40,817 nucleotides of DNA from an uncultured Nitrosopumilales archaeon (GTDB taxonomy: Archaea > Thermoproteota > Nitrososphaeria > Nitrososphaerales > JAAOZN01): the NCBI GenBank assembly GCA_964421575.1, contig CAYQXI010000008.1:1-40817 (forward strand). Direction: 5' to 3'. Each line of letters opens with the position of its first letter. The first letter of the stretch is position 1. Below are positions 2,054 to 36,743 of this stretch, piece after piece. The notes under the pieces were generated by a model, which saw only the letters and a list, made by a program, of their open reading frames with translations, was not told where the DNA came from and ran no database searches. The position numbers were made by a program, and so were the translations under genes.

Positions 2054-2057
2054 AATC

Positions 2058-5056: not shown

Positions 5057-5251
5057 ATGAGCTCGCTACCTGCTGGGTTGCAGGAGGAGCTTGAGAGACG
5101 CATAGCTGACTTCGAAAAGAACTTCGAAGCGCAAGTATTTAACAGGACTGATGCGATGATCCCCCGTATAAAAGCCATAGACTACATCGTAGTGGCTATA
5201 ACTGGCATAGTACTCACCATCTATCTGTTTCTAGCCTTAGCACTAGGGTGA
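5057..5251 (+). CDS. Small single-pass membrane protein (64 aa), overlaps the NCS1 permease start
   Basis: Charged N-terminal half, then a hydrophobic helix IDYIVVAITGIVLTIYLFLALALG. Its stop overlaps the GTG start of the permease by 4 nt (GTGA), implying translational coupling. Confidence 0.5.
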   Translation: MSSLPAGLQEELERRIADFEKNFEAQVFNRTDAMIPRIKAIDYIVVAITGIVLTIYLFLALALG

Positions 5252-6672
5252 TTCGGTTGGGCAAAGAGGAAATAGTGAAAGAGGTCTACTTCAGCTTACT
5301 CCCAACCAAACGTAGCGAACGCATCTATGGTTTTGGAGACTTCTTAGCTGTTCAAATCTCGTTCGGAATAGCGGCGTGGTTCTTTCTCGTTGGTGGCTTT
5401 ACTGGTCTATGGGTAAAAGCTTCTCATGCGATTCCGATAGTCTTATTTGGAAACATCGTTCCACTTCTTCTTGCATCGCCAATAGCCATACTCTTCGCAA
5501 GATACGGAACTGAACAGTTTTTGGGCCATAGAGCACTATTTGGGCAAAGAGGCAGTGATGTTTGGGTCATAATATACCTCACCTCTAGTGTAGGCTGGAT
5601 AGCATATGCGGCGTTACTCATGGGTTCAAGCACTTGGAAATTACTTGAAGCTATGGGCGTAAGTGGTATACTTGCTACCGAGAACCCTGGTATGATCTTG
5701 TGGGCTTTCGTAGGTAGTGTTATAGGTGGCTACATCGCTTGGCGAGGACCAGGGTTTCTGAAGTGGGCTCTAAGGATCGCCGCTTCTTTCCTAGTAATCG
5801 TCTTAATCATTCTAATAATAGAGCTTTTTGCAGTCTATGGAGTAGAGAAGATCTTTACAACCCCGCCTCCTGAACCGTTTGAAGACCCTGCTTGGAGCAT
5901 AGCCTCTGCGATAGAAGTAAATGTTGGACTGGGATTTTCGTGGGCCTTCTGGTACGGACAGTGGACTAGATTGGCAAAAACCGAGCGCGCCGCATATCAC
6001 GGCTGTTGGCTTGGTTGGGGCTTACTTGCATCTACAGCTGGTATCTTCTCCGCTTTAACGGCTATACTAGTTGGTTCATTTGACCCCACTGACTGGCTGA
6101 TAGCGTATGGTATTCCTTGGGTCACCATCGTTGGTCTCTTCCTAATATTAGTGGCTAACATTAGCTCCATTGCGTGCCTAATATATCCGATGAGTATAAC
6201 AACCAGAACCAGATGGCCAAGGTTCAGATGGACGCCCATCGTAGTAGTCTTTGTAGTAGCTAGTATAGTGCTGGAAGCAATACCGGGTGTATTCGAGAGC
6301 TACAATAAGTACTTGGCTATAATCTCACTCTTAACCGGTGTATACTCGGGAATAGCGGTAGCTGACTATCTAATAACAAGAGGAACACTAAAACTGCGAG
6401 CACTCTATGATAGGAAACGTGGGTACAGATATTGGCGTGGTTTCAACATCAGTGCCGTTATAGCCACTATAGTTGCGGCGGTCTTCTACCTCACAACACT
6501 GGAACCGATAAGCTGGACAAGCGCAAACGGGTTATTCCCCTATATTACAGCGGGAATACCAGCCTACTTCATAGCATTCGTTATCTACTACGTGCTGACT
6601 AAAAGCAAAGTCTTCGACAGGTTCTATGCGCCTACTTTACTACCCGCTTCAGAAGCGCAAAAGCAGACTTAA
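5248..6672 (+). CDS. NCS1-family permease (purine-cytosine / allantoin / hydantoin / uracil type)
   Basis: 474 aa and about 12 hydrophobic segments. The N-terminal LLPTKRSERIYGFGDFLAVQISFGIAAWFFLVGG matches the NCS1 signature region (L.P....R.w......W........G). Confidence 0.75.
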   Translation: MIRLGKEEIVKEVYFSLLPTKRSERIYGFGDFLAVQISFGIAAWFFLVGGFTGLWVKASHAIPIVLFGNIVPLLLASPIAILFARYGTEQFLGHRALFGQRGSDVWVIIYLTSSVGWIAYAALLMGSSTWKLLEAMGVSGILATENPGMILWAFVGSVIGGYIAWRGPGFLKWALRIAASFLVIVLIILIIELFAVYGVEKIFTTPPPEPFEDPAWSIASAIEVNVGLGFSWAFWYGQWTRLAKTERAAYHGCWLGWGLLASTAGIFSALTAILVGSFDPTDWLIAYGIPWVTIVGLFLILVANISSIACLIYPMSITTRTRWPRFRWTPIVVVFVVASIVLEAIPGVFESYNKYLAIISLLTGVYSGIAVADYLITRGTLKLRALYDRKRGYRYWRGFNISAVIATIVAAVFYLTTLEPISWTSANGLFPYITAGIPAYFIAFVIYYVLTKSKVFDRFYAPTLLPASEAQKQT

Positions 6673-6805: not shown

Positions 6806-7756
6806 TTATTGTTGAAGTGCTGTCTTCTTTAAGTAAGAAATAAGGGCTGGAACAATCTTGTAAAGATCATCAACAATCGAGTAGTCGGCATATTGATGAA
6901 TTGGTGCGTTCTTGTCTTTGTTTATAGCGACCACTACCTTAGATTTATTGAATCCTATTACGTGTTGTATCTGACCGGATATGCCTATCGCCATATATAA
7001 TTTAGGTGATACTATTACGCCTGTTAACCCAATTTGTCGCTCTGTAGGCAACCATTTATAATCCTCAGTCAGTATCCTCGAGCAGCCTATCTCAGCCTTT
7101 AACAAGCCAGCCACTTCCTCTATAAACGATAGATCCTCTTTTTTGGCTAGCCCTCTCCCTACCGAGACTATGCGATCTGCTTTCCTTAAATCTACACCTA
7201 CTTTCTCCAACAGCTTAGCTTCCACTCTAGACACTTTGGATCTTTCCGCTAAAACTTCCATCTCTATTATCTCAGGAATCGGTTGCCCTCCTTCAGGAGG
7301 CGAATATTGGTAGAGCTGATAAGTCGCAACCAAGTAGGGGGCTTTAACCCTATATGTTGCTATTACACCACCCCCTAAAATTGATCTAGCATATCTGATG
7401 ACATCACCATCTACGAATATTTCTGAAACTTCTGGTGCATAGGCAGCACCGGACAACGCAGCGCTAAACGCCGCTATCTCCTTCCCCAATTTAGTTCCAG
7501 GCAGAATCACAATCTTCGGCGCTTCTTTCTTCATCAGTGTTGCAAGAGCTGATGCTTGCTCGAAACTTACGCCATCATTTAACCCCTTTAAAGCTATTAT
7601 TTTACCCCATCCTCGATCTGAAACACCTTCAAGATTCTTTCCAGCTGTGATGAGTAAAGCTGGTTTTTCACCAAATTTGCTAGCAGTATGAATCGCCGGA
7701 GAGAGAACGTGTAATGCTGCTTTTGGCTCTTCTGTGAAAACCCAGACCTTACTCAT
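6806..7756 (-). CDS. etfA: Electron transfer flavoprotein alpha subunit
   Basis: C-terminal ETF-alpha signature LYMAIGISGQIQHVIGFNKSKVVVAINKDKNAPIHQYADYSIVDDLYKIVP. Confidence 0.92.
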   Translation of the reverse strand: MSKVWVFTEEPKAALHVLSPAIHTASKFGEKPALLITAGKNLEGVSDRGWGKIIALKGLNDGVSFEQASALATLMKKEAPKIVILPGTKLGKEIAAFSAALSGAAYAPEVSEIFVDGDVIRYARSILGGGVIATYRVKAPYLVATYQLYQYSPPEGGQPIPEIIEMEVLAERSKVSRVEAKLLEKVGVDLRKADRIVSVGRGLAKKEDLSFIEEVAGLLKAEIGCSRILTEDYKWLPTERQIGLTGVIVSPKLYMAIGISGQIQHVIGFNKSKVVVAINKDKNAPIHQYADYSIVDDLYKIVPALISYLKKTALQQ

Positions 7757-8538
7757 TCCAACACCCCCTCCTTCTTTAGTGCCTCAATTAGTTTCTCTAC
7801 AGCCTCTTCTGGCGTTCCCTCGATTCTGATTCCCTTTCTACTCGCCATCCTAGCAGGCTCTAACTTTTCCAGAACCACAAGATCATCTTCTTTATCGTTA
7901 ACCTCAGACAAACCTAATTCCCCGGGCGTTATGGTCTTAATCTTGGTAAGAGGCACCTTCATTATTTGCATTGTAGTCGGTATCCTTGGTTGATTTATCT
8001 CTCTGGTGACTGAAACTGCTGCGGGGAGAGGGCTTTCTAAAACCTCTACAACATCTTCCAACTTTCTCTCAACCCTTACTTTTCCATCCTCAACTTCCAT
8101 TTTCACAGCCGAGCCAATAAATGGAATACCAAGGTGCACAGCAATAGCTGGTCCAACATATGCTTGATAAAGATCCTCTGAAACTTCCCCCGAAATTATA
8201 AGATCATAAGGACCAAATTTTCTTATAGCGTTGGTTAACGCCATCACGGTTAACATATTATTAAACACATACAAGGAACCTGTTGATACAAGCACCGCCT
8301 CATCAGCGCCCATCGCTACTGCTTCCTTTAAAGTGGTTCTCGCAGCCTCCGAAGGCCCAAGGGATAAAATAGTAACTTTGGCTCCTCTTTTCTCTTTAAT
8401 CCTAACAGCCTCCTCTACCGCATACTTATCATAGTCACTAATCTTCGTCAAAGCACCTCTTAAAACAGGCCCAGTCTTAGGATCTATCCTTAAGGCAGCC
8501 GTATCTACAACGTGCTTAGCAAGAACAATTATGTTCAT
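7753..8538 (-). CDS. etfB: Electron transfer flavoprotein beta subunit
   Basis: MNIIVLAKHVVDTAALRIDP...ISDYDKYAVEEAVRIKE is the canonical EtfB N-terminus. It overlaps etfA by 4 nt. Start set to ATG 8538 (GGTG 6 nt upstream) rather than the track's GTG 8565. Confidence 0.9.
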   Translation of the reverse strand: MNIIVLAKHVVDTAALRIDPKTGPVLRGALTKISDYDKYAVEEAVRIKEKRGAKVTILSLGPSEAARTTLKEAVAMGADEAVLVSTGSLYVFNNMLTVMALTNAIRKFGPYDLIISGEVSEDLYQAYVGPAIAVHLGIPFIGSAVKMEVEDGKVRVERKLEDVVEVLESPLPAAVSVTREINQPRIPTTMQIMKVPLTKIKTITPGELGLSEVNDKEDDLVVLEKLEPARMASRKGIRIEGTPEEAVEKLIEALKKEGVLE

Positions 8539-8744
8539 TGTCTGCACCATCACTCGCCCGTCCACTCCTTCTTAATAAAATTTACGCCGCGGCTAGTATT
8601 ATCCTAAAAACTTATCGAGAACATTTTGCGATTGGCTTCTTTTTGTTAAAAGAAAAACAAATATCATATTCTCACTGAATTCTTTGTTAACACTTGCAAC
8701 TTTTTATGATCTGCCTAAGCCGCGTATATCAAGGAGTAAAAGAG

Positions 8745-10034
8745 CTACTGAGAAACCTCCTTTACGCATTCCTCCAATATATCCAAACCACTATCCAACA
8801 TTTTTTCCGATATAGTAAGTGGGGGATGCAGCCTTACAACATTAGAGTAGAGACCAGCCTTAAGCACCAACAGCCCCTTTTCTCTAGCTCTTTTAATAAC
8901 TTCGCTGGTCGCCTCACTCGCAGCTTCCTTCGTCCCTCTGTTCTTCACAAGCTCCATAGCTTGCATCACACCTAGTCCTCTCACATCACCTATAATCTCA
9001 TACCTCTCTTTCATCTCTTGAAGCCGCTTTTTCATCTTCTCCCCTAAAGCAGCTGCTCTGTCAGGTATTCTGTCCCTTAACATTATGTCTATTACCTTAA
9101 TTGCTGCAGCGCAAGCAACAGGGTTTCCTCCGTAAGTCCCGCCTATTGAACCAGGGACGACCTTACTCATTATATCCTTTCTTCCTATTACCCCAGAAAG
9201 TGGGAGACCATTCGCAATGGCCTTGCCTACAGTCATCAGGTCTGGCTCTACTCCATAATGTTCGCTGCAGAACATTTTCCCGGTTCTTCCGAATCCAGTC
9301 TGAATCTCATCGACTATCAGTAGGATACCGTTATCTTCACATAACTTCTTCAATTCTTTCAAATAATCGATCGGAGCTGGTATGAAGCCTCCCTCGCCTT
9401 GTATAGGCTCTATTATAAAAGCGGCAACCCTATTAGGCGGAACCCGCGTACGGAAGAAGAATTCCTTTACATAATCTAAGCACGCTAAACCACAACTACC
9501 GTATTCTTGCTTAAAGGGGCAACGGTAGCAGTAGGGAAAAGGCACCAACTCTATCCCAGTATTAAATGGTTCAAAACTTATCTTATAGGGTTCGTACTTT
9601 CCTGTAAGTGTAACAGCAAGATAAGTCCTCCCGTGGAAAGAGTTTTCATATGCTACTATATATGGCCTACCGACCTGTTGTCTGGCAATCTTTATCGCAT
9701 TCTCTACGGCTTCAGCACCGCTGTTAGCCAAAAAGACCTGCTTTTCAGACTTGCCAACAGAGATCTTGACCAATTTCTCCGCTAACTCGACATAGGGTTG
9801 ATAGTTTGTAACCATAAAGCAAGTATGCCAGAGCTTCTCTAGCTGAATTTTTACCGCCTCAACAAGTTCTGGATTCACATGACCTAAATTAGTTACACCT
9901 ATGCCGCTCGTAAAATCTAGATATCTTTTACCGGTTGTATCAACAAGAAATTCGTTTTCACCTCTTTCGATCGTTATCGGATGGAGTAGAGATAACCCCT
10001 TACTAACCCACATCTCTCTACTTTCAAGAGACAT
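8745..10034 (-). CDS. Class-III PLP-dependent aminotransferase (4-aminobutyrate / acetylornithine / omega-amino acid type)
   Basis: LIVDEIQTGFGRTGKMFCSEHYGVEPDLMTVGKAIANGLPLS, with the PLP-lysine in TVGK; N-terminal GIGVTNLGH. The substrate cannot be decided by eye. Confidence 0.88.
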   Translation of the reverse strand: MSLESREMWVSKGLSLLHPITIERGENEFLVDTTGKRYLDFTSGIGVTNLGHVNPELVEAVKIQLEKLWHTCFMVTNYQPYVELAEKLVKISVGKSEKQVFLANSGAEAVENAIKIARQQVGRPYIVAYENSFHGRTYLAVTLTGKYEPYKISFEPFNTGIELVPFPYCYRCPFKQEYGSCGLACLDYVKEFFFRTRVPPNRVAAFIIEPIQGEGGFIPAPIDYLKELKKLCEDNGILLIVDEIQTGFGRTGKMFCSEHYGVEPDLMTVGKAIANGLPLSGVIGRKDIMSKVVPGSIGGTYGGNPVACAAAIKVIDIMLRDRIPDRAAALGEKMKKRLQEMKERYEIIGDVRGLGVMQAMELVKNRGTKEAASEATSEVIKRAREKGLLVLKAGLYSNVVRLHPPLTISEKMLDSGLDILEECVKEVSQ

Positions 10035-10613
10035 TTCGCTTCCCCCAACTTTATTTGGATTTCCACTATTTTACTTTTGCGGAGAAAAATAACAGCTTTA
10101 GTCTAAAAGCCTTTGTTGATATAATATAACAACGAACGGAGATAACTGATAAGGCGGTCATAAGCTTTTAGCACACAATTCACTTTCTTGCAAGGTTATC
10201 GCGTAATTAGAAACTTTGAATGGTTTGGTAGTCTGTGCCCTAATCTCCAGACTGGCTTCGTAGACGAGATAAATGTTAGTAAGAACCTCCTTCTACGCGT
10301 GGTTTGAAAGAGAGTTAGGCGCTTCATGAATCGAAAGTTTCCATCGAGGAGGAGGGTTGCTTCAATTTACATTGATTAGTCCTTATGGAGAGAAGTTTGA
10401 AGTTGTGGCTAGAAACCAGAGGTTAGAGGCAATGCGAGAGGTAGAAGAAGGTTCACTTTTGTCTCAGACTTTAAATTACCACTACTCATAATGGTTAAGG
10501 TATATGGTGCTCCCGATACTTGATGCTTTGTGCATCTCAGCCTATTTAGGACTTCTTTTATCCTATCACCAGCATTTGACCTTATTTCTACCTATGCTTT
10601 TTGAGTCTGAATC

Positions 10614-10654
10614 TTGTCTCAGGGTTGTCTTTGCTGGGTTAAGACAGAAGACAA
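10614..10654. repeat. Nested inverted repeat TTGTCT-N5-TTGTCTT-N9-AAGACAG-AAGACAA
   Basis: TTGTCT at 10614-10619 and 10625-10630; AAGACA at 10641-10646 and AAGACAA at 10648-10654. It can fold as a two-stem hairpin (6 + 6-7 bp) or act as four half-sites, about 140-180 bp upstream of the biotin-island start. Confidence 0.5.
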
Positions 10655-10793
10655 TAACCAATTGAATTAGCCCGACAAAAACCTTACATAATAAGACAGA
10701 TTTCGCGCCACACCCTCAAAAATACGAGAAAAGCAAAGCTTTTAAAGGTTAAAGATACACCTTTAGGTATAAAATCAAAGGTGGGAGGTAGAC

Positions 10794-11786
10794 GTGAGTA
10801 AATACAACCCCGTTATCGACATACTACCCCCAAAAGAGGGGGGTTGGCAGAAAAAAATCATTTTCAGAGTTGCTGGAGATGGATGGTTGCAAGTGGAGTA
10901 TGGTGAGGAACAGGTTTTTGACCTCTTAGACACTTTTCGCCTATTTGCAATTATGGACAGGCTTGCGAAGAAGCAGATACCAGGGCTGATCGAATACGGT
11001 AATGGCTTCAGAACGATGATGTATAGATACGATCCGACAAAGATATCGCTTCGTGAGCTATTAAAATACATCAAAGAAGTCGAAGAGGAGGTGGGTGGCA
11101 TCGAAGAGCTTTCTTTCCCATCACGATTAGTAAAGTTACCGATAGTCTTCAAAGATAGTGTCACACGGGCCGCGATTGAAAAGTATGTGAGAGAAATCAG
11201 GCCGAACGCACCAAACGTCGTAAATGGTCATAACTTTGATTACACTGCTATGTATAACGGTCTCTCTCCTGAGGAGCTTAAAGAGAAAATCTTGGGAACA
11301 GAATGGTTCCTCTGCCATCAGCTCTTTTGGCCAGGTGGGACGTATCAATTGCCGATTGACCCAAGATGTGCTATAGAAGCTCCAAAGTATAACCCATCAA
11401 GAACATACACCCCTGAAGGGACTGTCGGTGTCGGAGGATGGTGTATCTATATTTACACGACAGAGTCTCCGGGTGGATATCAACTCCTTGGACGAACTAT
11501 ACCAACATACCAATTGTCGCAAAAACATCCCGCTTTCAAGGAAAAGCCATTCCTTCTAAAGGCATCCGATAGAATTAAATACTTTGAGACAACAGAGGAC
11601 AAATTATTGGAAATCTATAGACTTGTCCACGAAGAAGGTTCGCCGAAATACCAATATGACATAACGGAGGGGACTTTCCGCGTAAAAGATTATATTGATT
11701 TCATAAATAGGGAGGATGTGAAGAGAGAGGTCAAGGAATTTGAAAGAAGGAAAATGGAAGCGCAAAAGACCGTTCCCATACCTTAA
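10794..11786 (+). CDS. pxpB: KipI / PxpB family protein (carboxyltransferase subdomains C-D, 'allophanate hydrolase subunit 1')
   Basis: IIFRVAGDGWLQVEYGEE...GLIEYGNGFRTMMYRYDP and ...GGWCIYIYTTESPGGYQLLGRT (cyclophilin-like subdomain) match the KipI/PxpB pattern. GTG start lies 4 nt after GGTGGGAGGT. The symbol denotes the family, not a proven 5-oxoprolinase role. Confidence 0.85.
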   Translation: MSKYNPVIDILPPKEGGWQKKIIFRVAGDGWLQVEYGEEQVFDLLDTFRLFAIMDRLAKKQIPGLIEYGNGFRTMMYRYDPTKISLRELLKYIKEVEEEVGGIEELSFPSRLVKLPIVFKDSVTRAAIEKYVREIRPNAPNVVNGHNFDYTAMYNGLSPEELKEKILGTEWFLCHQLFWPGGTYQLPIDPRCAIEAPKYNPSRTYTPEGTVGVGGWCIYIYTTESPGGYQLLGRTIPTYQLSQKHPAFKEKPFLLKASDRIKYFETTEDKLLEIYRLVHEEGSPKYQYDITEGTFRVKDYIDFINREDVKREVKEFERRKMEAQKTVPIP

Positions 11787-11798
11787 GAGGTGATGTAG

Positions 11799-12830
11799 AT
11801 GCAGAGTAGTGGAATAGAATATGGGCCGTTGAAGATTAGGCAAGTAGGAATAAGGGTCTATGTTGAGGACTGGCCTGGAAGGTTAGGCTTCTATAAGTAC
11901 GGCTTCCCGGTCTCCGGAGCCGCAGACCATTATGCACATAGAATGGCAAACTTACTCGTCGGAAATCCTGTAACCGAGGCTACCCTAGAAGTGACAGGGG
12001 GATTTTTCGAGGCAGAATTTACGTTCGATACCGTCATAGCAGTGACGGGAGCTAATATGGAGCCTAAGGTAAACGATGATCCTATATTGATGTGGAAATC
12101 TGTGAGAGTTCGCGCAGGAGACGTATTAAAGCTTTCATTAAGTAAGGACGCAGGGTTTAGGGCTTACGTGGCTTTCGCTGGTGGAATCGATGTGCCGTTG
12201 TTTCTAGGTAGCAAGTCTACCTGTGTGTGGGGATCTTATGGCGGCTATAAAGGAAGATCGTTGCAAGCTGGTGACGTCTTAAATATAGGTAAGTTAAACG
12301 AAAAACAACTTGATAGCCTTGAAGGAAAGTATGTCAAGCCGAAGTTTATTCCTAATTACGAAAAGACGTGGGAAGTAGCCATGGTTCCAGGACCAACAGC
12401 GGCCCCCGACTATGTCACTGAAGAGGGAGTGGAAAAGGTGTTCTCCACAGTGTTTAATGTAGATCGCAATAGTGATAGATCTGGTTACAGACTGATAACG
12501 CCCAAGGATATCTTCCCCAAAGAGTGGGCTAGAAAAAGTGGTGGAGTAGCTGGGTTGCACCCCTCGAATATAGTAGACATGGGTTATACCATACCGGGTG
12601 GTCTAAATGTTACAGGCGACATGATAATAATTCTCGGACCTGATGGTCCTTGTGGAGGAGGTTACGTCATCTTGGGAACAGTAGCTTATGCTGATGTGTG
12701 GAAGGTGTTCCAAGCATTTCCAAGGAGAGACTTTATAAGGTTCAGATTTGCCACCCTTGACGAAGCGGAAGAGTTAAGGAGGAAGCAAGAGGCAATGTTC
12801 AACTCTAAAGAAGAAATAATTGGGGGGTGA
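11799..12830 (+). CDS. pxpC: KipA / PxpC family protein (carboxyltransferase subdomains A-B, 'allophanate hydrolase subunit 2')
   Basis: PVSGAADHYAHRMANLLVGNPVTEATLEVTGG...; ...DRSGYRL...; ...IILGPDGPCGGGY. GGTGA SD is 6 nt before the ATG. Confidence 0.85.
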   Translation: MQSSGIEYGPLKIRQVGIRVYVEDWPGRLGFYKYGFPVSGAADHYAHRMANLLVGNPVTEATLEVTGGFFEAEFTFDTVIAVTGANMEPKVNDDPILMWKSVRVRAGDVLKLSLSKDAGFRAYVAFAGGIDVPLFLGSKSTCVWGSYGGYKGRSLQAGDVLNIGKLNEKQLDSLEGKYVKPKFIPNYEKTWEVAMVPGPTAAPDYVTEEGVEKVFSTVFNVDRNSDRSGYRLITPKDIFPKEWARKSGGVAGLHPSNIVDMGYTIPGGLNVTGDMIIILGPDGPCGGGYVILGTVAYADVWKVFQAFPRRDFIRFRFATLDEAEELRRKQEAMFNSKEEIIGG

Positions 12831-12835
12831 GTTAA

Positions 12836-13597
12836 ATGAAAATCGACATAAATGTGGACGCGGGAGAAAGTTTTGGAAGATATAAACTCGGAAATGACGA
12901 GGAAGTGTTGAAATACGCTACTTCTGTAAACAGTGCAACAGGCTTCCACGCAGGTGATCCCAGCGTACTTTGGACTACCATCAAAATCGCTAAAAAATAC
13001 GGCATAGCGGTAGGGGCTCATCCAGGACTGCAAGATCTGAGAGGCTTTGGCAGAAGAAGGATACTCGTTGACCCAGAAGAACTAAAAGCGGATTTGATCT
13101 ACCAGCTAGGGGCTATCGATGGCTTTCTTAAAGTGGAGCAACTGAAACTCCAACATGTAAAACCCCACGGCGCGTTATATGTCATGGCGGAGACCGACGA
13201 AGCTTACGCATCAGCTGTGATAGATGCGGTGAAGGCTTATAACCCGGACCTCATCATTATTACAGAGAGGAATACACTCCTCTGGAACAAATGCAAAGCC
13301 GAGGGAATAAGGGTTGCAAGTGAAGTGTTCGTCGACTTAAAGTATGATGCGCAAGGGAAGATAATAATTGAAAGAGCTAAACAGCCGTGGGATCCAAACG
13401 TCGTTCTAAGACGTGCACTTATGGCGGTAAAGGAGGGGAAGATAGATACCGTTGATGGTAAGTTCATAGAAGTTAAAGCAGATACAATCTGCATACACGG
13501 AGATGCCCCCAACGCGGTTGATGTGATCAAAACTCTGAGAGAGGGGCTTCAGAGAGAAGGGGTAGAAGTGGTGAGGTTATCAGAGATAATTAGGTGA
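12836..13597 (+). CDS. pxpA: LamB/YcsF family lactamase-like protein (PxpA family)
   Basis: MKIDINVDAGESFGRYKLGNDEEVL...SATGFHAGDPSVL...GAHPGLQDLRGFGRR is the LamB/YcsF signature. GGTGA SD is 5 nt before the ATG. Confidence 0.9.
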   Translation: MKIDINVDAGESFGRYKLGNDEEVLKYATSVNSATGFHAGDPSVLWTTIKIAKKYGIAVGAHPGLQDLRGFGRRRILVDPEELKADLIYQLGAIDGFLKVEQLKLQHVKPHGALYVMAETDEAYASAVIDAVKAYNPDLIIITERNTLLWNKCKAEGIRVASEVFVDLKYDAQGKIIIERAKQPWDPNVVLRRALMAVKEGKIDTVDGKFIEVKADTICIHGDAPNAVDVIKTLREGLQREGVEVVRLSEIIR

Positions 13598-13605
13598 GGC
13601 GCTGC

Positions 13606-13818
13606 ATGAAAGTCATAACCGCTCCATTACCCGGCTTAGTGGCTCGCGTTTTAGTGAAGCCTGGAGACAATGTTAAAAATGGTGAAGTAGTAGTAGTGTT
13701 AAACGTTATGAAGACGGAAGTTAATGTGCAAGCAACAGATGAAGGAGTAGTTAATGAGGTCCATGTAAAAGAGTGGGATGAAGTGGATGTAGGCACTCCA
13801 TTAGTGTCCTTATATTAA
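13606..13818 (+). CDS. Stand-alone biotinyl/lipoyl-attachment domain (minimal biotin carboxyl carrier protein, 70 aa)
   Basis: MKVITAPLPGLVARVLVKPGDNVKNGEVVVVLNVMKTEVNVQATDEGVV...V..GTPL has the hammerhead-domain pattern with the candidate biotinyl-lysine in VMKTE. Start set to ATG 13606 (GGTGA 8 nt upstream, overlapping the pxpA stop) rather than GTG 13594. Confidence 0.8.
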   Translation: MKVITAPLPGLVARVLVKPGDNVKNGEVVVVLNVMKTEVNVQATDEGVVNEVHVKEWDEVDVGTPLVSLY

Positions 13819-13852
13819 CTACTACGTGCTCGTGTAGTCAAGGTGATCTTCT

Positions 13853-15211
13853 ATCGAGATAAAAAAACTGCTTATCGCAAATCGAGGAGAAATAGCAGTT
13901 CGCATAATCAGAACGTGCAGAAAGCTGGGCATAAAGACTGTTGCCGTTTATTCTGATGCAGATGCTAATGCTCTTCATGTTAAATTAGCTGATGAAGCCT
14001 TTCACATAGGCCGTTCTCCGCCTCCCTTCAGTTATTTGAACGTGGAGAAAATATGTGAAGTCGTGACGAAATCTAATGCAGACGCAGTTCATCCAGGTTA
14101 CGGGTTTCTTGCCGAAAATGCTTCGTTTGCGGAAGCTGTCGAAAAATTGGGAGTTATTTGGGTAGGTCCTCCTGCGAAAGTGATGAAAAAGATTGAATCA
14201 AAGTGTTTCTGCCGAATGATGGCAAGGGAGGCAGGAGTTCCTATTATACCCGGTTCTCTTGAACCTATAGATGAAAACGGGGCTAGAGAATACCTTGAGA
14301 GATTTGGTCGCATCCTCGTTAAAGCAGATCTGGGAGGCGGCGGAAAAGGGATGAAAATTGTTCGATCACAAGACGAGCTTCAGAGCGTCTATGAATCGGC
14401 ACAGAGGGAAGCGAGCGTAGCCTTTGGGAGACCTTACCTCTATGTCGAGAGGGTACTGGAAAGACCGAGGCATATTGAGGTTCAGATATTAGCTGACAAA
14501 TACGGTAATATAGTGTCTTTAGGGGAGAGGGAGTGTTCCATCCAACGAAGATACCAAAAGATTATTGAGGAGACACCTTCCCCGGTTGTAGATGAAAAGA
14601 CTAGGAAGTACGTTTCAGAACTTGCTATTAAAGTGATGGAGAAGTGCGACTATGTAAATGCTGGCACAGTAGAATTCCTCCGTGATAACGATGGTAACTT
14701 CTACTTCCTTGAAATTAACAAAAGGATTCAAGTAGAGCATCCTGTGACGGAGTGTGTGACTGGTGTAGATTTGATAGAACAACAACTCAAGATAGCCTCA
14801 GGAGAGCCTCTAGAGCTACGCTCGGTCTATAAACTGAATGGACACTCCATGGAATGCAGAATATACGCCGAAGATCCCATGACCTTTCTTCCGTCTCCAG
14901 GGAAAATACTTAGGGTTAAGCTTCCTGAGGGTGAAGGTATAAGAGTAGATCACGCGCTTGAAGATGGAACATACGTTCCTCCATTCTATGATCCATTAAT
15001 TGCTAAGGTTATTGTTCATACGGAAAAACGAGAAGATTCGATTCGCTTGATGAAGAAAGCTTTGCAAGATTTCGAGATAGAAGGAATAAAAACATCGATT
15101 CCATTTCTGTTAAATATACTGGATATCGAGGAATTCCAAAAAGGCGATGTTTACACACAACTTGTCGATCAGCTACAAGAGCTAAAAGATGTATCCAAGA
15201 TAAAAGTCTAG
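13853..15211 (+). CDS. accC: Biotin carboxylase (ATP-grasp), with non-canonical or frameshifted 5' end
   Basis: KKLLIANRGEIAVRIIRTCRKLGIKTVAVYSDAD..., GYGFLAENASFA, GGGGKGMKIV, RHIEVQILAD, EINKRIQVEHPVTE. The track's TTG 14036 would truncate the N-domain. The frame is open back to 13847 but has no ATG/GTG/TTG there. ATC 13853 lies 6 nt after GGTGA (see findings). Confidence 0.85.
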   Translation: MEIKKLLIANRGEIAVRIIRTCRKLGIKTVAVYSDADANALHVKLADEAFHIGRSPPPFSYLNVEKICEVVTKSNADAVHPGYGFLAENASFAEAVEKLGVIWVGPPAKVMKKIESKCFCRMMAREAGVPIIPGSLEPIDENGAREYLERFGRILVKADLGGGGKGMKIVRSQDELQSVYESAQREASVAFGRPYLYVERVLERPRHIEVQILADKYGNIVSLGERECSIQRRYQKIIEETPSPVVDEKTRKYVSELAIKVMEKCDYVNAGTVEFLRDNDGNFYFLEINKRIQVEHPVTECVTGVDLIEQQLKIASGEPLELRSVYKLNGHSMECRIYAEDPMTFLPSPGKILRVKLPEGEGIRVDHALEDGTYVPPFYDPLIAKVIVHTEKREDSIRLMKKALQDFEIEGIKTSIPFLLNILDIEEFQKGDVYTQLVDQLQELKDVSKIKV

Positions 15212-15324
15212 TTGTAGCGAGTTTCCTTTTTAAGATAGCCTTAAGAACTTTTAAACAAAACATTTTAGATGATAATTTTAAATACAGGCTGAAGAAGGAT
15301 ACTACTCCTTAGAGGGCTTAGTGA

Positions 15325-15960
15325 ATGTATGTGAGGCTTGTGATGTGCGCTACTATAGCTGTTCTAGCCGGTATCTTGGCTCAACTGAGCTTCTGGATCG
15401 GACCAATTCCTTATACGTTCCAGAACACTAGCGTTGTTTTAGCAGGGCTCCTCCTAGATGCTCCACATGCCTTTCTTTCGATGGTTCTCTATGTGCTTTT
15501 TGTAGCCCTTGGACTTCCGATGGCAGCTGGGTTTAGGGGCGGAATTTATGTTATTCTAGGCCCTACAGGAGGTTATATCCTTGGATTCATGCTTTCTGCT
15601 CCACTAATGAGCTTGCTAAGAAGGTGGTACCTAAGGTTAAGGGGCAGAAAGCTGGATGAGCTTGGGCTTGCTGACTACCTAGCTCTCCTTCCACTCTCCT
15701 TAATAGCTGTCCTCCCAACTTATGTACTAGGCTTCCTCGTATTCTCATATCACGCTCTTGGCAATGAGCAATTCTTTTCTTGGGCTCAAAATGTGGTAAG
15801 TTCGATAGGGGGAAATGTAAGCGACAGGCTTCTTATACCATTTATTGCTGGTGTGCTCGTGTTCGTGCCCCAGGACCTTTTAATGGATCACGTTATAGCG
15901 CTCGCCTTAGCTAAATACATTTATAAGATTGCGGCGTACAAAGGACTTAAACTGAATTGA
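15325..15960 (+). CDS. bioY: BioY biotin-specific S component of an ECF transporter
   Basis: GPIPYTFQNTSVVLAGLLLDAPHAF...GLPMAAGFRGGIYVILGPTGGYILGFMLSAPLMS matches the BioY core (P.T.Q...v.l.G.llG; GPTGGYL.GF). Confidence 0.88.
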   Translation: MYVRLVMCATIAVLAGILAQLSFWIGPIPYTFQNTSVVLAGLLLDAPHAFLSMVLYVLFVALGLPMAAGFRGGIYVILGPTGGYILGFMLSAPLMSLLRRWYLRLRGRKLDELGLADYLALLPLSLIAVLPTYVLGFLVFSYHALGNEQFFSWAQNVVSSIGGNVSDRLLIPFIAGVLVFVPQDLLMDHVIALALAKYIYKIAAYKGLKLN

Positions 15961-17204
15961 ACGCTATTAACGTTAGCGGACTAAGCGTTTCGATAGACAG
16001 TAATATGGTATTAAAGGAGTTTTCCTTTTCAGTAAGGGAAGGCGAGGTAGCACTTGTCACTGGACCTTCCGGCTCTGGTAAGACCACTCTATTGAAGGTG
16101 TTATCAGGTATTATTCCCAACATATACACGAATTTTTCAATAACAGGTTCTGTAAGGGTCTTTGACCTAAGCCCTTGGCAAGCTACTGAAAAGGGGCTCG
16201 TGGCTTACGTTCCTCAAGACATCTACACCTTTTTCTTAGGCTCAAGAGTCTGCGAGGAGCTGGAGCTTCTGAGGCTTCCACCGAATGGCTTTGTACACCA
16301 CTGTGACAAGTTTTTGGAGGAACTCTCAGATGGAATGCTCTATAAATTCCTCACTTACACAGTTACAAATAGTAGTGCCAAGCTACTTCTGCTTGATGAG
16401 CCAGCCTCGCACCTGGATATGGAGACCCTAACTAATGTGCTGGAATTACTAAGGGCTACTGCTCAAGAAAAAAGAATCACGGTTGTTGTCGCTGACCATA
16501 ACATTGAGGGGGTGATGGGCTATTTTGATGCGATTATTGAGCTTGATAAGGAGGTAGAGAGACACAAGAATTTTGATACATTTACGCCTAGAGGCTTTAA
16601 GGAGTACGGTGTGCAGGAATTCAATGCTTATGCCACTAACCTGAAAATAAACCTTGGCAGAAGAACGCTGTTTAAGAGGCTAAACTTTGCTGTTAGTAAG
16701 GGAGGCGTGTTTGGAGTCTTTGGAAGGAATGGTACAGGTAAAACGACGCTTTTGAAGGTGTTGGCTGGTCTCATTCCTTACGAGTCTGGGGAGCTGCATG
16801 TTGAAAAGCCTATATTCTACATTCCGCAGAAACCCCTGTATTGGTTTTCCACCGGCTCTGTCCGTGAAGAGCTTTCCCTTTACCTGAAGTTATTTGGTAG
16901 AAGGTTAAAGGAGGAGGATGTGCTGGGAATGTTCATTCTACAGCACTTAGCAGATAGAAATCCCTATACGCTTAGCGTCGGAGAGGCAAGAAGACTTGCG
17001 ATGGCTCTTGCTTATATCGCCAGCCCCAAGCTCCTTTTGTTTGATGAACCGTTTCTTGGGCTTGACAGAGAATCTGAGGAAGTTTTCGCAGAGCTTCTCG
17101 AAAGCGTTAAGGAAGGATATGGCTCAGTTATCGTTGCTTCTCATAACAGAATACTTGCAAAATATGTTGATAACTACCTAGAACTCTCTCCAAGCGGCGA
17201 GTGA
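15957..17204 (+). CDS. ECF/ABC transporter ATPase with two fused nucleotide-binding domains (EcfA-EcfA' / BioM-like)
   Basis: Two Walker A motifs (GPSGSGKTT, GRNGTGKTT), two Walker B motifs (LLLLDEPASHLD, LLLFDEPFLGLD), signatures LSDGM and LSVGE, and H-loops ADHN/ASHN. TTG start overlaps the bioY stop. Confidence 0.88.
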   Translation: MNAINVSGLSVSIDSNMVLKEFSFSVREGEVALVTGPSGSGKTTLLKVLSGIIPNIYTNFSITGSVRVFDLSPWQATEKGLVAYVPQDIYTFFLGSRVCEELELLRLPPNGFVHHCDKFLEELSDGMLYKFLTYTVTNSSAKLLLLDEPASHLDMETLTNVLELLRATAQEKRITVVVADHNIEGVMGYFDAIIELDKEVERHKNFDTFTPRGFKEYGVQEFNAYATNLKINLGRRTLFKRLNFAVSKGGVFGVFGRNGTGKTTLLKVLAGLIPYESGELHVEKPIFYIPQKPLYWFSTGSVREELSLYLKLFGRRLKEEDVLGMFILQHLADRNPYTLSVGEARRLAMALAYIASPKLLLFDEPFLGLDRESEEVFAELLESVKEGYGSVIVASHNRILAKYVDNYLELSPSGE

Positions 17205-17210
17205 ATCTCT

Positions 17211-17825
17211 TTGATTAGCCTCTCAAGGTTCTTAAAGGAGCGCCGTAGAAGGATTACTTTTAAGGTATCGCTAGCTCTCTTGCTCACCACATCCCTATTA
17301 GCATTTCTTACACCAGCTAACCTATTACCATTACTTGCTATAGGGGTAACAATTGTGTTCATTTATGTTGCAGGTTTTGAGCAATTAGTACCACTTACAA
17401 AGTACTTCTTGTTGTTTATAATACCTCTGTCAATAGCCTCTATACTTCTTCAAGTAATTGTTGGTGCTATTGATTTTGCATTGATTGTGACTAATTTCAC
17501 TAAAATTTACATACTATACACGGCTTCATTAATCGCGATGAAGAGTTTTTCATCAATAGAGCTCGTATCCTTTTTTCGAAAACTGAAATTTAAACCCTTA
17601 ATAGCAGTACTTTTAGCATTAAAGCTCACATACTACTCTGCTTCAATATTCACGGACTTGGTAAGTGTTTACAAAGTTAATGTGGGGTACCTTGGCAAAA
17701 AAGGTTTTTTATGTAGAGTTATGTTGCTTGTGATGCAGATAAAAGCTTTTGTCCAGCTCTTTACAGTTAAGGCTCTTGAGGTGGGGGAGGCTATGTACAC
17801 CAGATACAAGAAGTTTGTCGGGTGA
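17211..17825 (+). CDS. ecfT: ECF transporter transmembrane T component (EcfT / CbiQ / BioN-like)
   Basis: 204-aa polytopic membrane protein immediately after the ECF ATPase (6-nt gap). The assignment relies mostly on position and hydrophobicity. It is shorter than typical EcfT. Confidence 0.65.
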   Translation: MISLSRFLKERRRRITFKVSLALLLTTSLLAFLTPANLLPLLAIGVTIVFIYVAGFEQLVPLTKYFLLFIIPLSIASILLQVIVGAIDFALIVTNFTKIYILYTASLIAMKSFSSIELVSFFRKLKFKPLIAVLLALKLTYYSASIFTDLVSVYKVNVGYLGKKGFLCRVMLLVMQIKAFVQLFTVKALEVGEAMYTRYKKFVG

Positions 17826-17998
17826 GATTTCTTGATTGAAGATCTGGCGGGAAGCGTTTTAGAAATGTTACTCAACAGCCGAGGTTCCGTCGGCGGAATT
17901 GAGTTAACAAGACTCCAATGGATTTCTGGGGCAAAGATAAATAGGGTAGGTAGAGGTGTAATCTTAGGCTGGGTTATGGGATAGTCCATTACAACGAT

Positions 17999-18787
17999 TT
18001 GATGCACATAAATAAGGTGCTCTCAGTATTGCCTACACGAATGAAGTTTTTTACATATTACTTGAAGGAGTGCCCAAGTAGCCAAGATGTCGCAGAGGCT
18101 CTTGCTCTTGAAGGTGCTCCTGAAGGGACAGTAATTGTATGCGAAGAGATGTGTAGTGGCAGAGGAAGGATGCATAGAAAGTGGTTTGCGAGTAGAGGTG
18201 GTCTTTGGTTTACAGTACTTCTGAGACCGGCTCAGCTCAAGAGCCTTCACGCCCTCTCCCTCGCAGCGGGGCTTTCCGTCGCAAAAGCCTTGAAGAGCGT
18301 CTTCTCCGTGGATGCTAAAGTGAAGTGGCCCAACGATGTGCTAATAGATGGAAAGAAGGTATGTGGGATACTTAGTGAGGCTGGAGCTAAGGCTGATAAG
18401 ATCAATTATCTTCTACTCGGAATAGGAGTGAACGTAAACAACGAGCTACCGGAAGAGCTTAGAGAGTCAGCCGTTGCACTTAAGGATGTTTTAGGTTTTG
18501 AAGTCCCTAGGGCTCCTCTTCTTAAAGAGATTTTGTTAAACATAGATGCCTACTACTACAGGATTACGATAGGTGAGGTTGATAGAGTTGTCAGAGAATG
18601 GAAGGAGTGGAGCTCAACGCTGGGCAAAATCGTGAGGGTATGCGTAATGGGTAGGGTTATAGAGGGAGCGGCAATAGATGTTGATGGAGATGGCGCACTA
18701 CTGTTGGAAACAAGCAGAGGCATGGAGAAAGTGATGGTAGGAGAAGTGGTGTATCTCAGAACGCTTGAAGAGAAGAATGAGCTATAA
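17999..18787 (+). CDS. birA: Biotin--[biotin carboxyl carrier protein] ligase (group I, no HTH domain)
   Basis: CPSSQDVAEALALEGAPEGTVIVCEEMCSGRGRMHRKWFASRGGLWFTVLLRP contains the BPL GRGR.GR.W.S..G motif, followed by KWPNDVLIDGKKVCGIL and GIGVNVN. The true start may be ATG 18041 (MKFFTYYL...). Confidence 0.9.
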   Translation: MMHINKVLSVLPTRMKFFTYYLKECPSSQDVAEALALEGAPEGTVIVCEEMCSGRGRMHRKWFASRGGLWFTVLLRPAQLKSLHALSLAAGLSVAKALKSVFSVDAKVKWPNDVLIDGKKVCGILSEAGAKADKINYLLLGIGVNVNNELPEELRESAVALKDVLGFEVPRAPLLKEILLNIDAYYYRITIGEVDRVVREWKEWSSTLGKIVRVCVMGRVIEGAAIDVDGDGALLLETSRGMEKVMVGEVVYLRTLEEKNEL

Positions 18788-23881: not shown

Positions 23882-25693
23882 ATGTTCGGGTTTAATGGTA
23901 GAGTTCTTAGAGTGGACCTAACAAACGTAAAGTGTAAGGCTGAAGATCTGAGGGCCGATTGGGTTGAGAAGTATATCGGAGGAAGAGGGCTAGGCATAAG
24001 GTATCTCTATGATGAACTTCCTCCAAAGATTGATCCACTTTCCCCCGAAAACAAAATAATAATTGCCACTGGACCGTTAACTGGTACAATAGCACCTCTT
24101 TCTGGCAGATACCCATTAATTACAAAGTCTCCAGAAACTGGAACTATACTGGATAGCTATTGCGGCAGCCATTTTGGTGTTAAGATGAAGTTTGCAGGCT
24201 GGGACCTACTAATAATCCAAGGAAGGGCTTCGAAGCCGACGTGGCTACATATAAGTGAAAAAGGGGCCGAATTTAAAGACGCTACCAAATATTGGGGAAT
24301 GTTCACCCACGATGTGACAGCAGCAATAAGAGAGGAATTGCGTGACGAGGATGCTTCAGTGCTTGCCATAGGACCGGCTGGAGAAAAAATGGCATTGATA
24401 GCAGCGGTAGTAGGCGATGGGGACTGGCTACATGGAAGAGGAGGAGCAGGTGCTGTTATGGGCAGCAAAAACCTGAAGGCGATAGCAGTAGAAGGTTATA
24501 AGAGTACTGTTAAACTGTATGATCCGGACAGATTTAAGCAAAATGTTTCAGAACTTATTTCAAAAAGTGTAAAGACTGATGCGAATATGTGGGCAGCAAC
24601 GGATGGCACCCCGATCATTGTGGATATTTCAAATATGTCGGGTGTACTAGTTACTAAAGACTATACTCAAGGCGTATTTGAATACGCGGAAAACATAAAC
24701 ACTGAAAGAATAAAAGAAAGACTCGCTAAAAGGTATGCTTGTTATTCATGTCCACTTGTCTGCAAGAGAAAAATTAAGGTTAACGATAAGATACTTAAGG
24801 CTCCCGAATATGAGACGTTAGCTCTCGTAGGTTCGAATACTGGGTTAGGGGACTTGAGTGGAGTCGCGGAGATAAATCATCTAGCAGATACGTACGGAAT
24901 GGATACGATCTCACTTGGTAGCATACTCGGCTTCACAATAAGACTCTGTAAAGAAGGCATACTTACAAAGAATGATGTTGGTGGATTAGACTTAGATTGG
25001 GGTAGAACTGACGCTTTAGTTAAGTTAGCAGAGATGATCGGCAAAAGAGAGGGAATAGGAAAGATACTTAGCGAAGGTGTCAGAAGAGCTGCTAAGCAGA
25101 TAGGAAAGGGTGCAGAAAAATTCGTGATGGAAGTGAAAGGATTAGAGTTGCCAGGGTATGAAGCGAGAGGAAGCTGGGGGATGGCGCTAGCTTACGCCAC
25201 CGCAGATAGAGGAGGTTGTCATCTGAGGGCTTGGATGGTTGCAGAAGACGCATTTGTTAAGAAAGACCAGTTCAGCTTTAATGGAAAGCCAGAGGGTGTT
25301 AAGAGGCTTCAAGATTTGAATAGTATTAAATGGTCAGCTACGATCTGTGACTTTTGGGCCTTGGATTACAAGGAGTTAGTTGAGCTATTTAACCCAGCCT
25401 TAGGTAAAAATTACACCGAGGAGGATCTAAAGCTGATTGGTGAGAGGATATGGAACTTATCTAAAATGTTCAACGTAAGGGAAGGCTTTACTAGGAAAGA
25501 CGACTATTTGCCAGCGAGAATATTTACCGAACCTTTAAAGGGAGGGGTCTCTGATGGAAAGTTTGTAATAAAGGAAGAATTTGAAACAGCGCTAACAAAG
25601 TACTATACACTTAGAGGGTGGGATCCCGAGACCAGCATACCCTTACCAGAAACCTTAAAGAGATTAGGGTTAAAAGAGGATCTAAAGCTTTAA
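23882..25693 (+). CDS. aor: Tungsten-containing aldehyde:ferredoxin oxidoreductase family protein
   Basis: MFGFNGRVLRVDLTN...YIGGRGLGIRYLYDE is the canonical AOR N-terminus; also ...RGGAGAVMGSKNLKAIAV, CYSCPLVCKR (cluster cysteines) and DRGGCHLRAW. 603 aa. Confidence 0.92.
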   Translation: MFGFNGRVLRVDLTNVKCKAEDLRADWVEKYIGGRGLGIRYLYDELPPKIDPLSPENKIIIATGPLTGTIAPLSGRYPLITKSPETGTILDSYCGSHFGVKMKFAGWDLLIIQGRASKPTWLHISEKGAEFKDATKYWGMFTHDVTAAIREELRDEDASVLAIGPAGEKMALIAAVVGDGDWLHGRGGAGAVMGSKNLKAIAVEGYKSTVKLYDPDRFKQNVSELISKSVKTDANMWAATDGTPIIVDISNMSGVLVTKDYTQGVFEYAENINTERIKERLAKRYACYSCPLVCKRKIKVNDKILKAPEYETLALVGSNTGLGDLSGVAEINHLADTYGMDTISLGSILGFTIRLCKEGILTKNDVGGLDLDWGRTDALVKLAEMIGKREGIGKILSEGVRRAAKQIGKGAEKFVMEVKGLELPGYEARGSWGMALAYATADRGGCHLRAWMVAEDAFVKKDQFSFNGKPEGVKRLQDLNSIKWSATICDFWALDYKELVELFNPALGKNYTEEDLKLIGERIWNLSKMFNVREGFTRKDDYLPARIFTEPLKGGVSDGKFVIKEEFETALTKYYTLRGWDPETSIPLPETLKRLGLKEDLKL

Positions 25694-27091: not shown

Positions 27092-27143
27092 AAGATATAT
27101 GAGTGTTAGTTAAAGGGGTAGGGTGTAGAAGGGTTGTTAAGGA

Positions 27144-27443: not shown

Positions 27444-27449
27444 AGGAAG

Positions 27450-28016: not shown

Positions 28017-28077
28017 AGTGTTGGTGTCGTTTATTACCTTATATATGAATTGCTCCTAATAAATAAATTAGAGAAGT

Positions 28078-28410: not shown

Positions 28411-28417
28411 GACGGAG

Positions 28418-29263: not shown

Positions 29264-29265
29264 TC

Positions 29266-32232: not shown

Positions 32233-32235
32233 CCA

Positions 32236-34374: not shown

Positions 34375-34380
34375 CTCAAA

Positions 34381-35925: not shown

Positions 35926-35927
35926 AT

Positions 35928-36236: not shown

Positions 36237-36237
36237 A

Positions 36238-36726: not shown

Positions 36727-36743
36727 CCCTCATCACCACACCC

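Follow-up and report, generated by a model that had tools for sequence, protein, structure and literature searches.

Gene content of the biotin cluster

The window analyzed here is the whole of a 40,817-nucleotide stretch of DNA from an uncultured Nitrosopumilales archaeon (contig CAYQXI010000008.1, positions 1 to 40,817 of the forward strand). It contains at 10794-18787 a run of nine co-directional genes on the + strand, predicted to encode the subunits of a biotin-dependent enzyme together with the means of supplying it with biotin. Strong family matches were obtained for eight of the nine gene products, which are listed below.

10794-11786, + strand: CT_C_D protein (KipI-like), 330 amino acids (aa), of the long form found in urea carboxylase (UC); PF02682, 124.5 bits
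11799-12830, + strand: CT_A_B protein (KipA-like); PF02626, 264 bits
12836-13597, + strand: LamB/YcsF (PxpA-family) hydrolase; PF03746, 283 bits
13606-13818, + strand: minimal biotin carboxyl carrier protein (BCCP), 70 aa; PF00364 (Biotin_lipoyl), 61.7 bits
13853-15211, + strand: biotin carboxylase (BC), ATP-grasp; Biotin_carb_N, CPSase_L_D2 and Biotin_carb_C domains
15325-15960, + strand: BioY, biotin-specific S component; PF02632, 88.3 bits (cut-off 25)
15957-17204, + strand: fused double ABC ATPase, putative A-A' module of an energy-coupling factor (ECF) transporter; two ABC_tran domains
17211-17825, + strand: helical membrane protein of 204 aa, putative divergent ECF T component; position and weak fold match
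17999-18787, + strand: BirA, biotin protein ligase without a helix-turn-helix domain; PF03099, PF02237 and TIGR00121 (186.3 bits, cut-off 83.1)

An earlier note, made by a model from the sequence of the window, had described nine co-directional genes of these families. The coordinates and strand hold for all nine and the families are strong for eight, and the same nine-gene arrangement recurs in three independent assemblies (ERZ27289264, ERZ27289263 and SRR7540018). The note had also described the first five genes as tightly packed, each behind a Shine-Dalgarno sequence. A GGTG(A) sequence was indeed observed upstream of each, but gaps of 34 nt or less are obtained only if the BC gene starts at ATC 13853. 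The carrier reading frame has an alternative GTG start at 13594, which would give a protein of 74 aa. The note had stated that the cluster has no AccA/AccD/PccB-type (crotonase-fold) carboxyltransferase, and none was found among the window open reading frames (ORFs) scanned.

Relationship of the KipI-like and KipA-like proteins to urea carboxylase

The KipI-like protein scored 229.8 bits against the UC model TIGR02712 (model positions 796-1099) and 47.4 bits against the PxpB model TIGR00370 (cut-off 145.55), while the KipA-like protein scored 307.7 bits against TIGR02712 and 145.1 bits against the PxpC model NF045499 (cut-off 500). Among structures in the PDB, the KipI-like protein matched K. 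lactis UC (3VA7) at 165 bits and PH0987, KipI and YbgJ at 35-55 bits; the KipA-like protein matched 3VA7 and 5I8I at 207 bits and E. coli YbgK (5DUD) at 105 bits. For both proteins the UC scores were two to five times the Pxp scores, with models and structures alike, which bears out the earlier proposal that KipI and KipA are homologous to the carboxyltransferase domain of UC. The alignment to K. lactis UC spans residues 480-804 (carboxyltransferase subdomains A-B) and 820-1118 (subdomains C-D). The KipA-like protein is 41% identical to fused UC-type enzymes and 31.6% identical to E. coli PxpC; for the KipI-like protein the values are 31% to fused UC-type enzymes and 24%-26% to PxpB, which is shorter (218 aa compared with 330 aa). 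The cut-off of the UC equivalog TIGR02712 (1303.85 bits) was not reached, the four separate genes giving pieces of 229.8, 307.7, 496.7 and 41.5 bits. The KipA-like protein does pass the broader '5-oxoprolinase/urea amidolyase family' domain model TIGR00724 (234 bits, cut-off 230.2).

Genome and metagenome scans combined with exact-protein look-ups provided 166 related loci for comparison. In 139 of these the enzyme is fused, that is, one chain of about 1200 aa carrying BC, carboxyltransferase and carrier, and 27 (the window and 26 others) are split. The two collection scans returned mostly fused UC-type genes, with which the search patterns are shared, and 21 of the split loci were new from them; a word-indexed KipI search gave 90 clusters, a number that is no measure of family size.

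An insertion of about 21 aa and a DPR..PKYNPxR motif are common to the split KipI-like proteins and UC, and counting along the alignment equates the Lys of KYNPxR with K. lactis K1605 and a Tyr further downstream with Y1628. The LGxGDVYLG loop has an Asp, by count K. lactis D1584, that is present in 129 of 129 fused sequences, whereas a gap stands in its place in all 26 of 26 split sequences and in E. coli PxpB. This Asp is said to have a role in urea binding or catalysis in the K. lactis enzyme. At the pocket loop the split proteins read F-W-P-G-G, like the F-Q-P-G-F of E. coli PxpB, and besides the deleted Asp about 70 other KipI positions conserved in the fused enzymes differ in the split proteins. 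With UC-like scores and insertion beside a PxpB-like loop, the pair appears to be UC-like overall, while its probable substrate loop is Pxp-like, and because of this loop the chemistry may be closer to Pxp-type lactam hydrolysis than was first assumed. As judged from sequence, the window system is outside the UC equivalog, because it is split, lacks the Asp and has no allophanate hydrolase, and outside the PxpB and PxpC equivalogs, because its scores are far under their cut-offs; it combines features of both families.

Phylogeny and conservation of the split loci

Neighbor-joining trees were rooted on E. coli PxpC and PxpB, with bootstrap values out of 50. The split proteins were monophyletic (46/50 and 50/50), as were the fused proteins (50/50), and the two clades were sisters. 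The earlier note had reasoned that its interpretation would fail if the proteins fell inside the PxpABC clade; they form a separate clade, sister to the fused UC-type enzymes. The split clade consists of one archaeal and one bacterial branch. Named relatives include Nitrososphaerota, Caldarchaeum, archaeon HR01, Thermofilaceae and Bathyarchaeota among the archaea, and Peptococcaceae, Pelotomaculum, Desulfofundulus, Clostridium kluyveri and Streptomyces among the bacteria. Loss of adjacency in related genomes had likewise been named as evidence against the interpretation, and the five genes were found to adjoin from Thermoproteota/Nitrososphaerota-type archaea to Bacillota and Streptomyces.

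The two groups of loci differ in their hydrolase. LamB is present in 25 of the 27 split loci and in none of the 139 fused loci. Among the nearest neighbors of 61 fused genes were 37 DUF1989 ORFs, 29 amidase ORFs and 23 with the allophanate hydrolase C-terminal domain, and in no case LamB, while allophanate hydrolase and DUF1989 were outside the 25 commonest families flanking the 26 split relatives and were not among the window ORFs scanned. The type of downstream hydrolase thus goes together with that of the carboxyltransferase, as would fit a logic in which the substrate is carboxylated and the carboxylated product is then hydrolyzed. The window LamB is 34% identical to E. coli PxpA; it passes the PxpA subfamily model NF003814 (297.6 bits, cut-off 226) and is under the PxpA-type equivalog cut-offs (for example, 266 compared with 392 bits). 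The name LamB comes from lactam (2-pyrrolidinone) utilization in Aspergillus nidulans and would suit a role in lactam opening.

Names given to homologues of the cluster are inconsistent, among them 'allophanate hydrolase subunit', 'kinase A inhibitor', 'urea carboxylase' and '5-oxoprolinase subunit C family', and the NCBI name of close homologues is 'biotin-dependent carboxyltransferase family protein'. Solving the function would correct these names.

Biotin carboxylase and carrier protein

The window BC scored about 580 bits with AccC models and retains all 12 of the E. coli AccC catalytic residues checked (K116, K159, E201, H209, K238, E276, E288, N290, R292, Q294, E296 and R338, E. coli numbering), as does every split BC. 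The predicted biotinyl-Lys of the carrier lies in NVMKTE, and this MK Lys is kept in all split carriers. Both BC and carrier look functional.

A signature of the form PGLVARV...N[VC]MK[TN]E...KEWDE was found in 20 of the 23 in-cluster split carriers aligned (window 13606-13818; L001, L002, L004, L008, L010-L014, L090-L096, L098, L100 and L101), while the fused enzymes read E[AS]MKME. Carriers of canonical type are present in split loci L015, L020 and L021, and the same three have no adjacent BC. This clade-specific signature points to a carrier that serves this carboxyltransferase in particular and has evolved along with it.

The BC reading frame has no ATG, GTG or TTG codon upstream of TTG 14036 as far back as the in-frame stop at 13844-46. 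Automatic gene callers shorten the protein to 389-391 aa, but the N-terminal BC domain requires the 61 codons upstream of TTG 14036, and these codons are conserved. A GGTGA sequence is positioned 6 nt ahead of ATC 13853 and none is found ahead of TTG 14036, and the 94%-identical relative L004 has GTG where the window gene has GAG. For these reasons BC probably initiates at a near-cognate codon, ATC 13853 or ATA 13859. An assembly error as the cause of the missing start was ruled out, since the window sequence of this region is reproduced exactly in three other contigs that encode this protein and come from three read sets.

Biotin supply genes

The four genes that follow BC had been described in the earlier note as supplying the cofactor. 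This holds for BioY and BirA. The fused double-ABC protein is a putative ECF module, and the putative EcfT has its position and a weak fold match in its favor but no sequence support. The ABC ATPase at 15957-17204 scored 133 bits with ECF_ATPase_2 (TIGR04521), under the cut-off of 330, and an orthologous arrangement is present in L008. The 204-aa membrane protein had no Pfam or NCBIfam match, even at E=10, and no CbiQ/EcfT sequence match. It has 16 homologues at E<=1e-3 among 1.84 billion representatives, and the family has an invariant C-terminal motif, E..(Y/F/I)(T/C/S/I)R. The top four PDB fold matches of its AF2 model (pLDDT 83.9) were ECF T components, and these were weak (E 0.24-1.5, TM 0.41-0.50). 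In other assemblies BirA was called as a protein of 248 aa, with its start at the position equivalent to 18041.

Relatives with other gene arrangements show a link to biotin supply as well. BioY, ATPase, T component and BirA lie 2.4 kb upstream of the cluster in L008; BioY directly follows BC in L098 and L175; BirA follows LamB in L014; and in L007 BirA is divergent from KipI with BioY 4 kb off. Of the 27 split loci, four have BioY and four have BirA; of the 139 fused loci, none has BioY and one has BirA. Neither was found adjoining the cluster in the closest relative, L004, or in archaeon HR01 (L001). The Streptomyces ochraceiscleroticus locus (L174, 1343-13043) contains LamB, BCCP, BC, CT_C_D and CT_A_B, then a PucR regulator and a second CT_C_D/CT_A_B pair, and past a gap of about 1.4 kb are bioB and bioD-like genes; the link is therefore also present in a bacterium that makes its own biotin.

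Aminotransferase and other catabolic neighbors

The following genes of the window lie around the cluster.

5248-6672: NCS1 transporter
8745-10034, - strand: GabT-like class-III aminotransferase, divergent from the cluster; PF00202, 439 bits
19237-20703, - strand: SSF (SSS) transporter
23882-25693, + strand: aldehyde:ferredoxin oxidoreductase (AFOR); AFOR_N, 254 bits, and AFOR_C, 429 bits
25841-27091, + strand: glutamate dehydrogenase (GDH); ELFV_dehydrog domains

Four of these (aminotransferase, GDH, SSS and NCS1) had been listed in the earlier note as a hint to amino acid or N-heterocycle metabolism, and all four are present. As a hint the list holds in part: the aminotransferase recurs and is more informative than had been assumed, but the NCS1 transporter was seen in the window only and the SSS transporter in one other locus, L008.

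A GabT-like aminotransferase was found in 11 of 27 split loci compared with 0 of 139 fused loci (p ~3e-10, a value that overstates the evidence because the loci are related), and after LamB it is the most informative conserved partner. Its best PDB match is E. coli GabT (1SF2, 367 bits). With the GABA transaminase model TIGR00700 the window protein scored 486.7 bits (cut-off 506.65), and aminotransferases located inside bacterial clusters pass this cut-off, with 556 and 530 bits. Assignment of the window protein as BioA was rejected, since GabT models and structures were best and BioA structures scored much lower.

AFOR is carried by five of the 27 split loci and by none of the 139 fused loci. 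It is in the same operon in L092 and L094, where a co-directional run consists of a substrate-binding protein, ABC ATPase, permease, LamB, GabT, KipI, KipA, BCCP, BC and AFOR. In L175, an archaeal relative with 77% identity, AFOR adjoins GabT, and both, with an AsnC regulator, are divergent from a cluster in the order KipI, KipA, LamB, BCCP, a 194-aa membrane protein, BC and BioY. The window AFOR is possibly tied to the cluster as the semialdehyde oxidizer. GDH was not found in the other split loci; it could recycle glutamate from the aminotransferase, although this link is weak.

Proposed function

We propose, with a probability of roughly 0.55, that the products of the first five genes make up a UC-family enzyme of several subunits that depends on biotin and is coupled to a LamB/PxpA hydrolase, and that this system would open a lactam with ATP. 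We infer all of the chemical steps, the substrate and the association of the subunits, and the N-carboxylation step is modeled on UC with allophanate hydrolase. With ATP and bicarbonate, BC would add a carboxyl group to the biotin of the 70-aa carrier, and a heterodimer of the KipI-like and KipA-like proteins, acting as carboxyltransferase, would pass the carboxyl group to the ring nitrogen of a lactam or cyclic amide. LamB would hydrolyze the activated N-carboxy-lactam, and the carbamate product would then shed CO2. The net result would be the ATP-driven opening of a lactam whose hydrolysis is otherwise unfavorable. Biotin would be imported by BioY, the ABC ATPase and the putative T component and attached to the carrier by BirA.

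The conserved GabT-type and aldehyde-oxidizing partners suggest an omega-amino acid as product, of the gamma-aminobutyrate (GABA) type. The simplest candidate substrate would be 2-pyrrolidone, converted to GABA and then to succinate, and the main alternative would be 5-oxoproline, converted to glutamate. The divergent GabT-like aminotransferase would transaminate the ring-opened amino acid, AFOR would oxidize the semialdehyde and GDH would regenerate 2-oxoglutarate. An input of energy is plausible because the hydrolysis of gamma-lactams is unfavorable, the equilibrium ratio [Glu]/[5-oxoproline] being about 0.035 (PMC13274462).

Several points weigh against this proposal. The chemistry of the cluster is argued wholly from analogy, and in the accepted view of PxpABC, PxpBC phosphorylates 5-oxoproline in an ATP-dependent reaction with no biotin; LamB could therefore act on a different intermediate. 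The aminotransferase was seen in only 11 of the 27 split loci, in the window it is just under the GabT equivalog cut-off, and its family also includes racemases and other transaminases. The window BC gene has no canonical start codon. BC is missing from the flanks of L013, L015, L020 and L021, while L007 has only KipI and KipA beside BirA. Finally, the loci are phylogenetically related, so that all of the enrichment counts overstate the evidence.

Alternative explanations

The cluster might instead be a self-contained 5-oxoprolinase, acting on the PxpABC substrate with its own BC and carrier, and with the aminotransferase link secondary; we regard this as possible, if on balance doubtful. The passing scores of LamB with the PxpA subfamily model and of KipA with TIGR00724 are in its favor, as are the F-x-P-G pocket loop and several other positions that match E. 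coli PxpB and not UC, and the nearby GDH. At high temperature, moreover, Glu and Gln are rapidly converted to 5-oxoproline. The conservation of pxpABC in Thermococci (PMC9258230) points the same way. However, the PxpB and PxpC cut-offs were widely missed (47 compared with 145.55 bits, and 145 compared with 500 bits), and the product glutamate would need neither a GabT-type transaminase nor an aldehyde oxidoreductase, yet both are in the operon in several bacteria. We consider it very improbable indeed that the cluster encodes a genuine urea or guanidine carboxylase in split form. Its best HMM (hidden Markov model) and PDB matches are to UC, and some sources name its homologues 'urea carboxylase' or 'allophanate hydrolase subunit', but the partner of the split proteins is LamB in 25 of 27 loci, and the 25 commonest families of the surveyed split flanks, like the window ORFs scanned, include neither allophanate hydrolase nor DUF1989. 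In every split protein the fused-invariant Asp is deleted, and the roughly 70 further KipI differences point the same way.

The mycobacterial KipA/KipI homologues MSMEG_0435-0436 provide both independent support and a further alternative. In the cryo-EM structure of this pair the biotin of a carrier domain is bound in a pose fit for carboxyl transfer, and the pair had no UC activity (PMC13012033). By analogy, this binding would be independent support that the protein family handles biotin. Like the window pair they are of the KipA/KipI family, and they physically bind biotinyl-BCCP; they belong, however, with the short Pxp proteins (scores of 104 and 36 bits against the window proteins), borrow the AccA3 carrier domain and have been interpreted as a regulator. 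The KipI-like and KipA-like proteins of the window could in the same way be regulators that bind a biotinylated carrier and hold back a carboxylase whose real carboxyltransferase, of PccB/AccD type, is encoded elsewhere. The mycobacterial complex does sequester carrier biotin and lower propionyl-CoA carboxylase activity, and five split loci (L007, L013, L015, L020 and L021) have no adjacent BC. We nevertheless think a regulatory role quite improbable, since the five-gene operon with its distinctive dedicated carrier is kept in archaea and bacteria alike, 25 of 27 loci have LamB, catabolic partners recur, and no crotonase-type carboxyltransferase was found in the window or among the 25 commonest families flanking the 26 related split loci.

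A wider reading, which we hold to be rather unlikely, is that carboxylation-driven lactam hydrolysis is the general mechanism of LamB/KipI/KipA (Pxp) systems. The PxpABC enzymes now taken to be biotin-independent would then cryptically borrow carboxybiotin from the BC and carrier of the cell, and the split cluster would be the complete form. The mycobacterial structure hints, by analogy, at such borrowing. To our knowledge none of the three Pxp subunits has a recognized ATP-binding fold, and borrowed carboxybiotin, if true, would explain how Pxp activity is coupled to ATP hydrolysis without one. Solving the function of the split cluster might in this way explain the use of ATP by Pxp-type oxoprolinases.

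Comparison with known systems

UC (K. lactis 3VA7 and 5I8I; TIGR02712) and the bacterial guanidine carboxylases are, like the window system, composed of BC, biotin carrier and a four-subdomain (A-B, C-D) carboxyltransferase. They form its sister clade and have the insertion and the KYNPxR motif in common with the window pair. They differ in that the window enzyme consists of four separate polypeptides where UC is one chain of about 1200 aa; in that the Asp of LGxGDVYLG is deleted and the carrier is of the NVMKTE/KEWDE type, where the fused UC-type enzymes have an invariant Asp and E[AS]MKME; and in the hydrolase partner, LamB in the window and allophanate hydrolase or DUF1989 with the fused enzymes. 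On these sequence comparisons the window system is a third branch of the UC carboxyltransferase family, beside the urea and guanidine carboxylases, for which split subunits, deletion of the fused-invariant Asp, a KEWDE-type carrier and a LamB partner are diagnostic.

PxpABC (E. coli YbgJKL, 5DUD; B. subtilis KipI/KipA/YcsF) resembles the window in having the same three families in one operon, with the F-x-P-G loop shared with PxpB and a LamB that is 34% identical to PxpA. Pxp is assumed to act by phosphorylation without biotin, whereas the window cluster encodes its own dedicated BC and carrier, and the window has Lys in KYNPxR where PxpB has Arg. The lactamases of the hydantoinase A/B family (the OplAB 5-oxoprolinase and caprolactamase) carry out the same net reaction as proposed here, ATP-driven lactam hydrolysis, but unlike the window system they have unrelated folds and no biotin. 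Five of the 27 split loci (L001 8168-12189, L004 1-4020, L007 143-4155, L091 10415-14076 and L013) have hydantoinase A/B genes no more than a few kb from the cluster, and none of the 139 fused loci has them; in those five, two unrelated ATP-dependent lactamase-type systems stand side by side. The BioMNY/ECF biotin transporter with BirA is matched in the window by BioY, two ABC domains, a small membrane protein and BirA; the window differs in that its ATPase is a single fused protein and its candidate T component is short (204 aa), with no CbiQ/EcfT sequence match.

BC-linked Kip/LamB clusters had been called uncharacterized in the earlier note, and full-text literature searches found no characterization of one. 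In P. aeruginosa, the genes of the PA0492-0496 operon are listed as hypothetical or 'probable', and their products include a probable biotin-requiring enzyme as well as a probable subunit of acyl-CoA carboxylase; we take this operon also to contain LamB and KipI/KipA homologues. In a Lactiplantibacillus genome paper, extra BC and carrier genes and pxpB/pxpC-like genes were treated as unrelated features. At the annotation level the cluster is already a 'known unknown', and what is new here are the diagnostic features and a specific pathway hypothesis. If correct, the proposal would bring a new substrate class to biotin enzymology, and a biotin-dependent function beyond CO2 fixation to archaea that scavenge biotin.

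Other features of the window and related loci

The 760-nt gap at 10035-10793 between the divergent aminotransferase and the cluster contains no ORF larger than 53 aa and may hold promoters or an operator; in relative L175 the AsnC regulator occupies this position. Rfam gave no match in the whole window at the gathering threshold and none in the gap at E<=1, and a tblastn search of the window found no remnant of the AsnC regulator, small ORFs or membrane proteins of relatives. A sigma-70 promoter and terminator scan of the window was at the level of shuffled sequence, the model not being applicable to archaea.

Small membrane proteins are encoded in or after a number of the clusters and may be substrate permeases. 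DUF1097 proteins were found in 6 of 27 split loci compared with 0 of 139 fused loci, all in or after Bacillota clusters (L002 13389-13895, L011, L014, L015, L021 and L100). The 194-aa protein between BCCP and BC in L175 (13046-13630, equivalent to L098 12038-12622) is confined to one archaeal lineage. It was rejected as a member of DUF1097, to which it is unrelated. The window encodes a weak paralogue of it at about 38118-38288(-).

In the Caldarchaeum sp. locus L007 (8075-11005) unrelated ORFs take the place of LamB, BCCP and BC, and BirA, BioY, a GabT-like aminotransferase, a HIBADH-type dehydrogenase and hydantoinase A/B are nearby; in this locus the system may have been rearranged or dispersed. 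Genes for an FAD-linked oxidase, a CCG/Fe-S protein and the alpha and beta subunits of electron transfer flavoprotein (ETF) flank the cluster region of the window (830-3605 and 6806-8565), and ETF and CCG protein genes also adjoin the cluster in the closest relative (L004, 4117-7723). The GC content is about 0.42-0.45 in window positions 1-26000, which hold the biotin cluster, and rises to 0.475-0.50 in 26000-40817, and the right part of the window contains complex I-type genes (29266-37889) and an aconitase-family gene.

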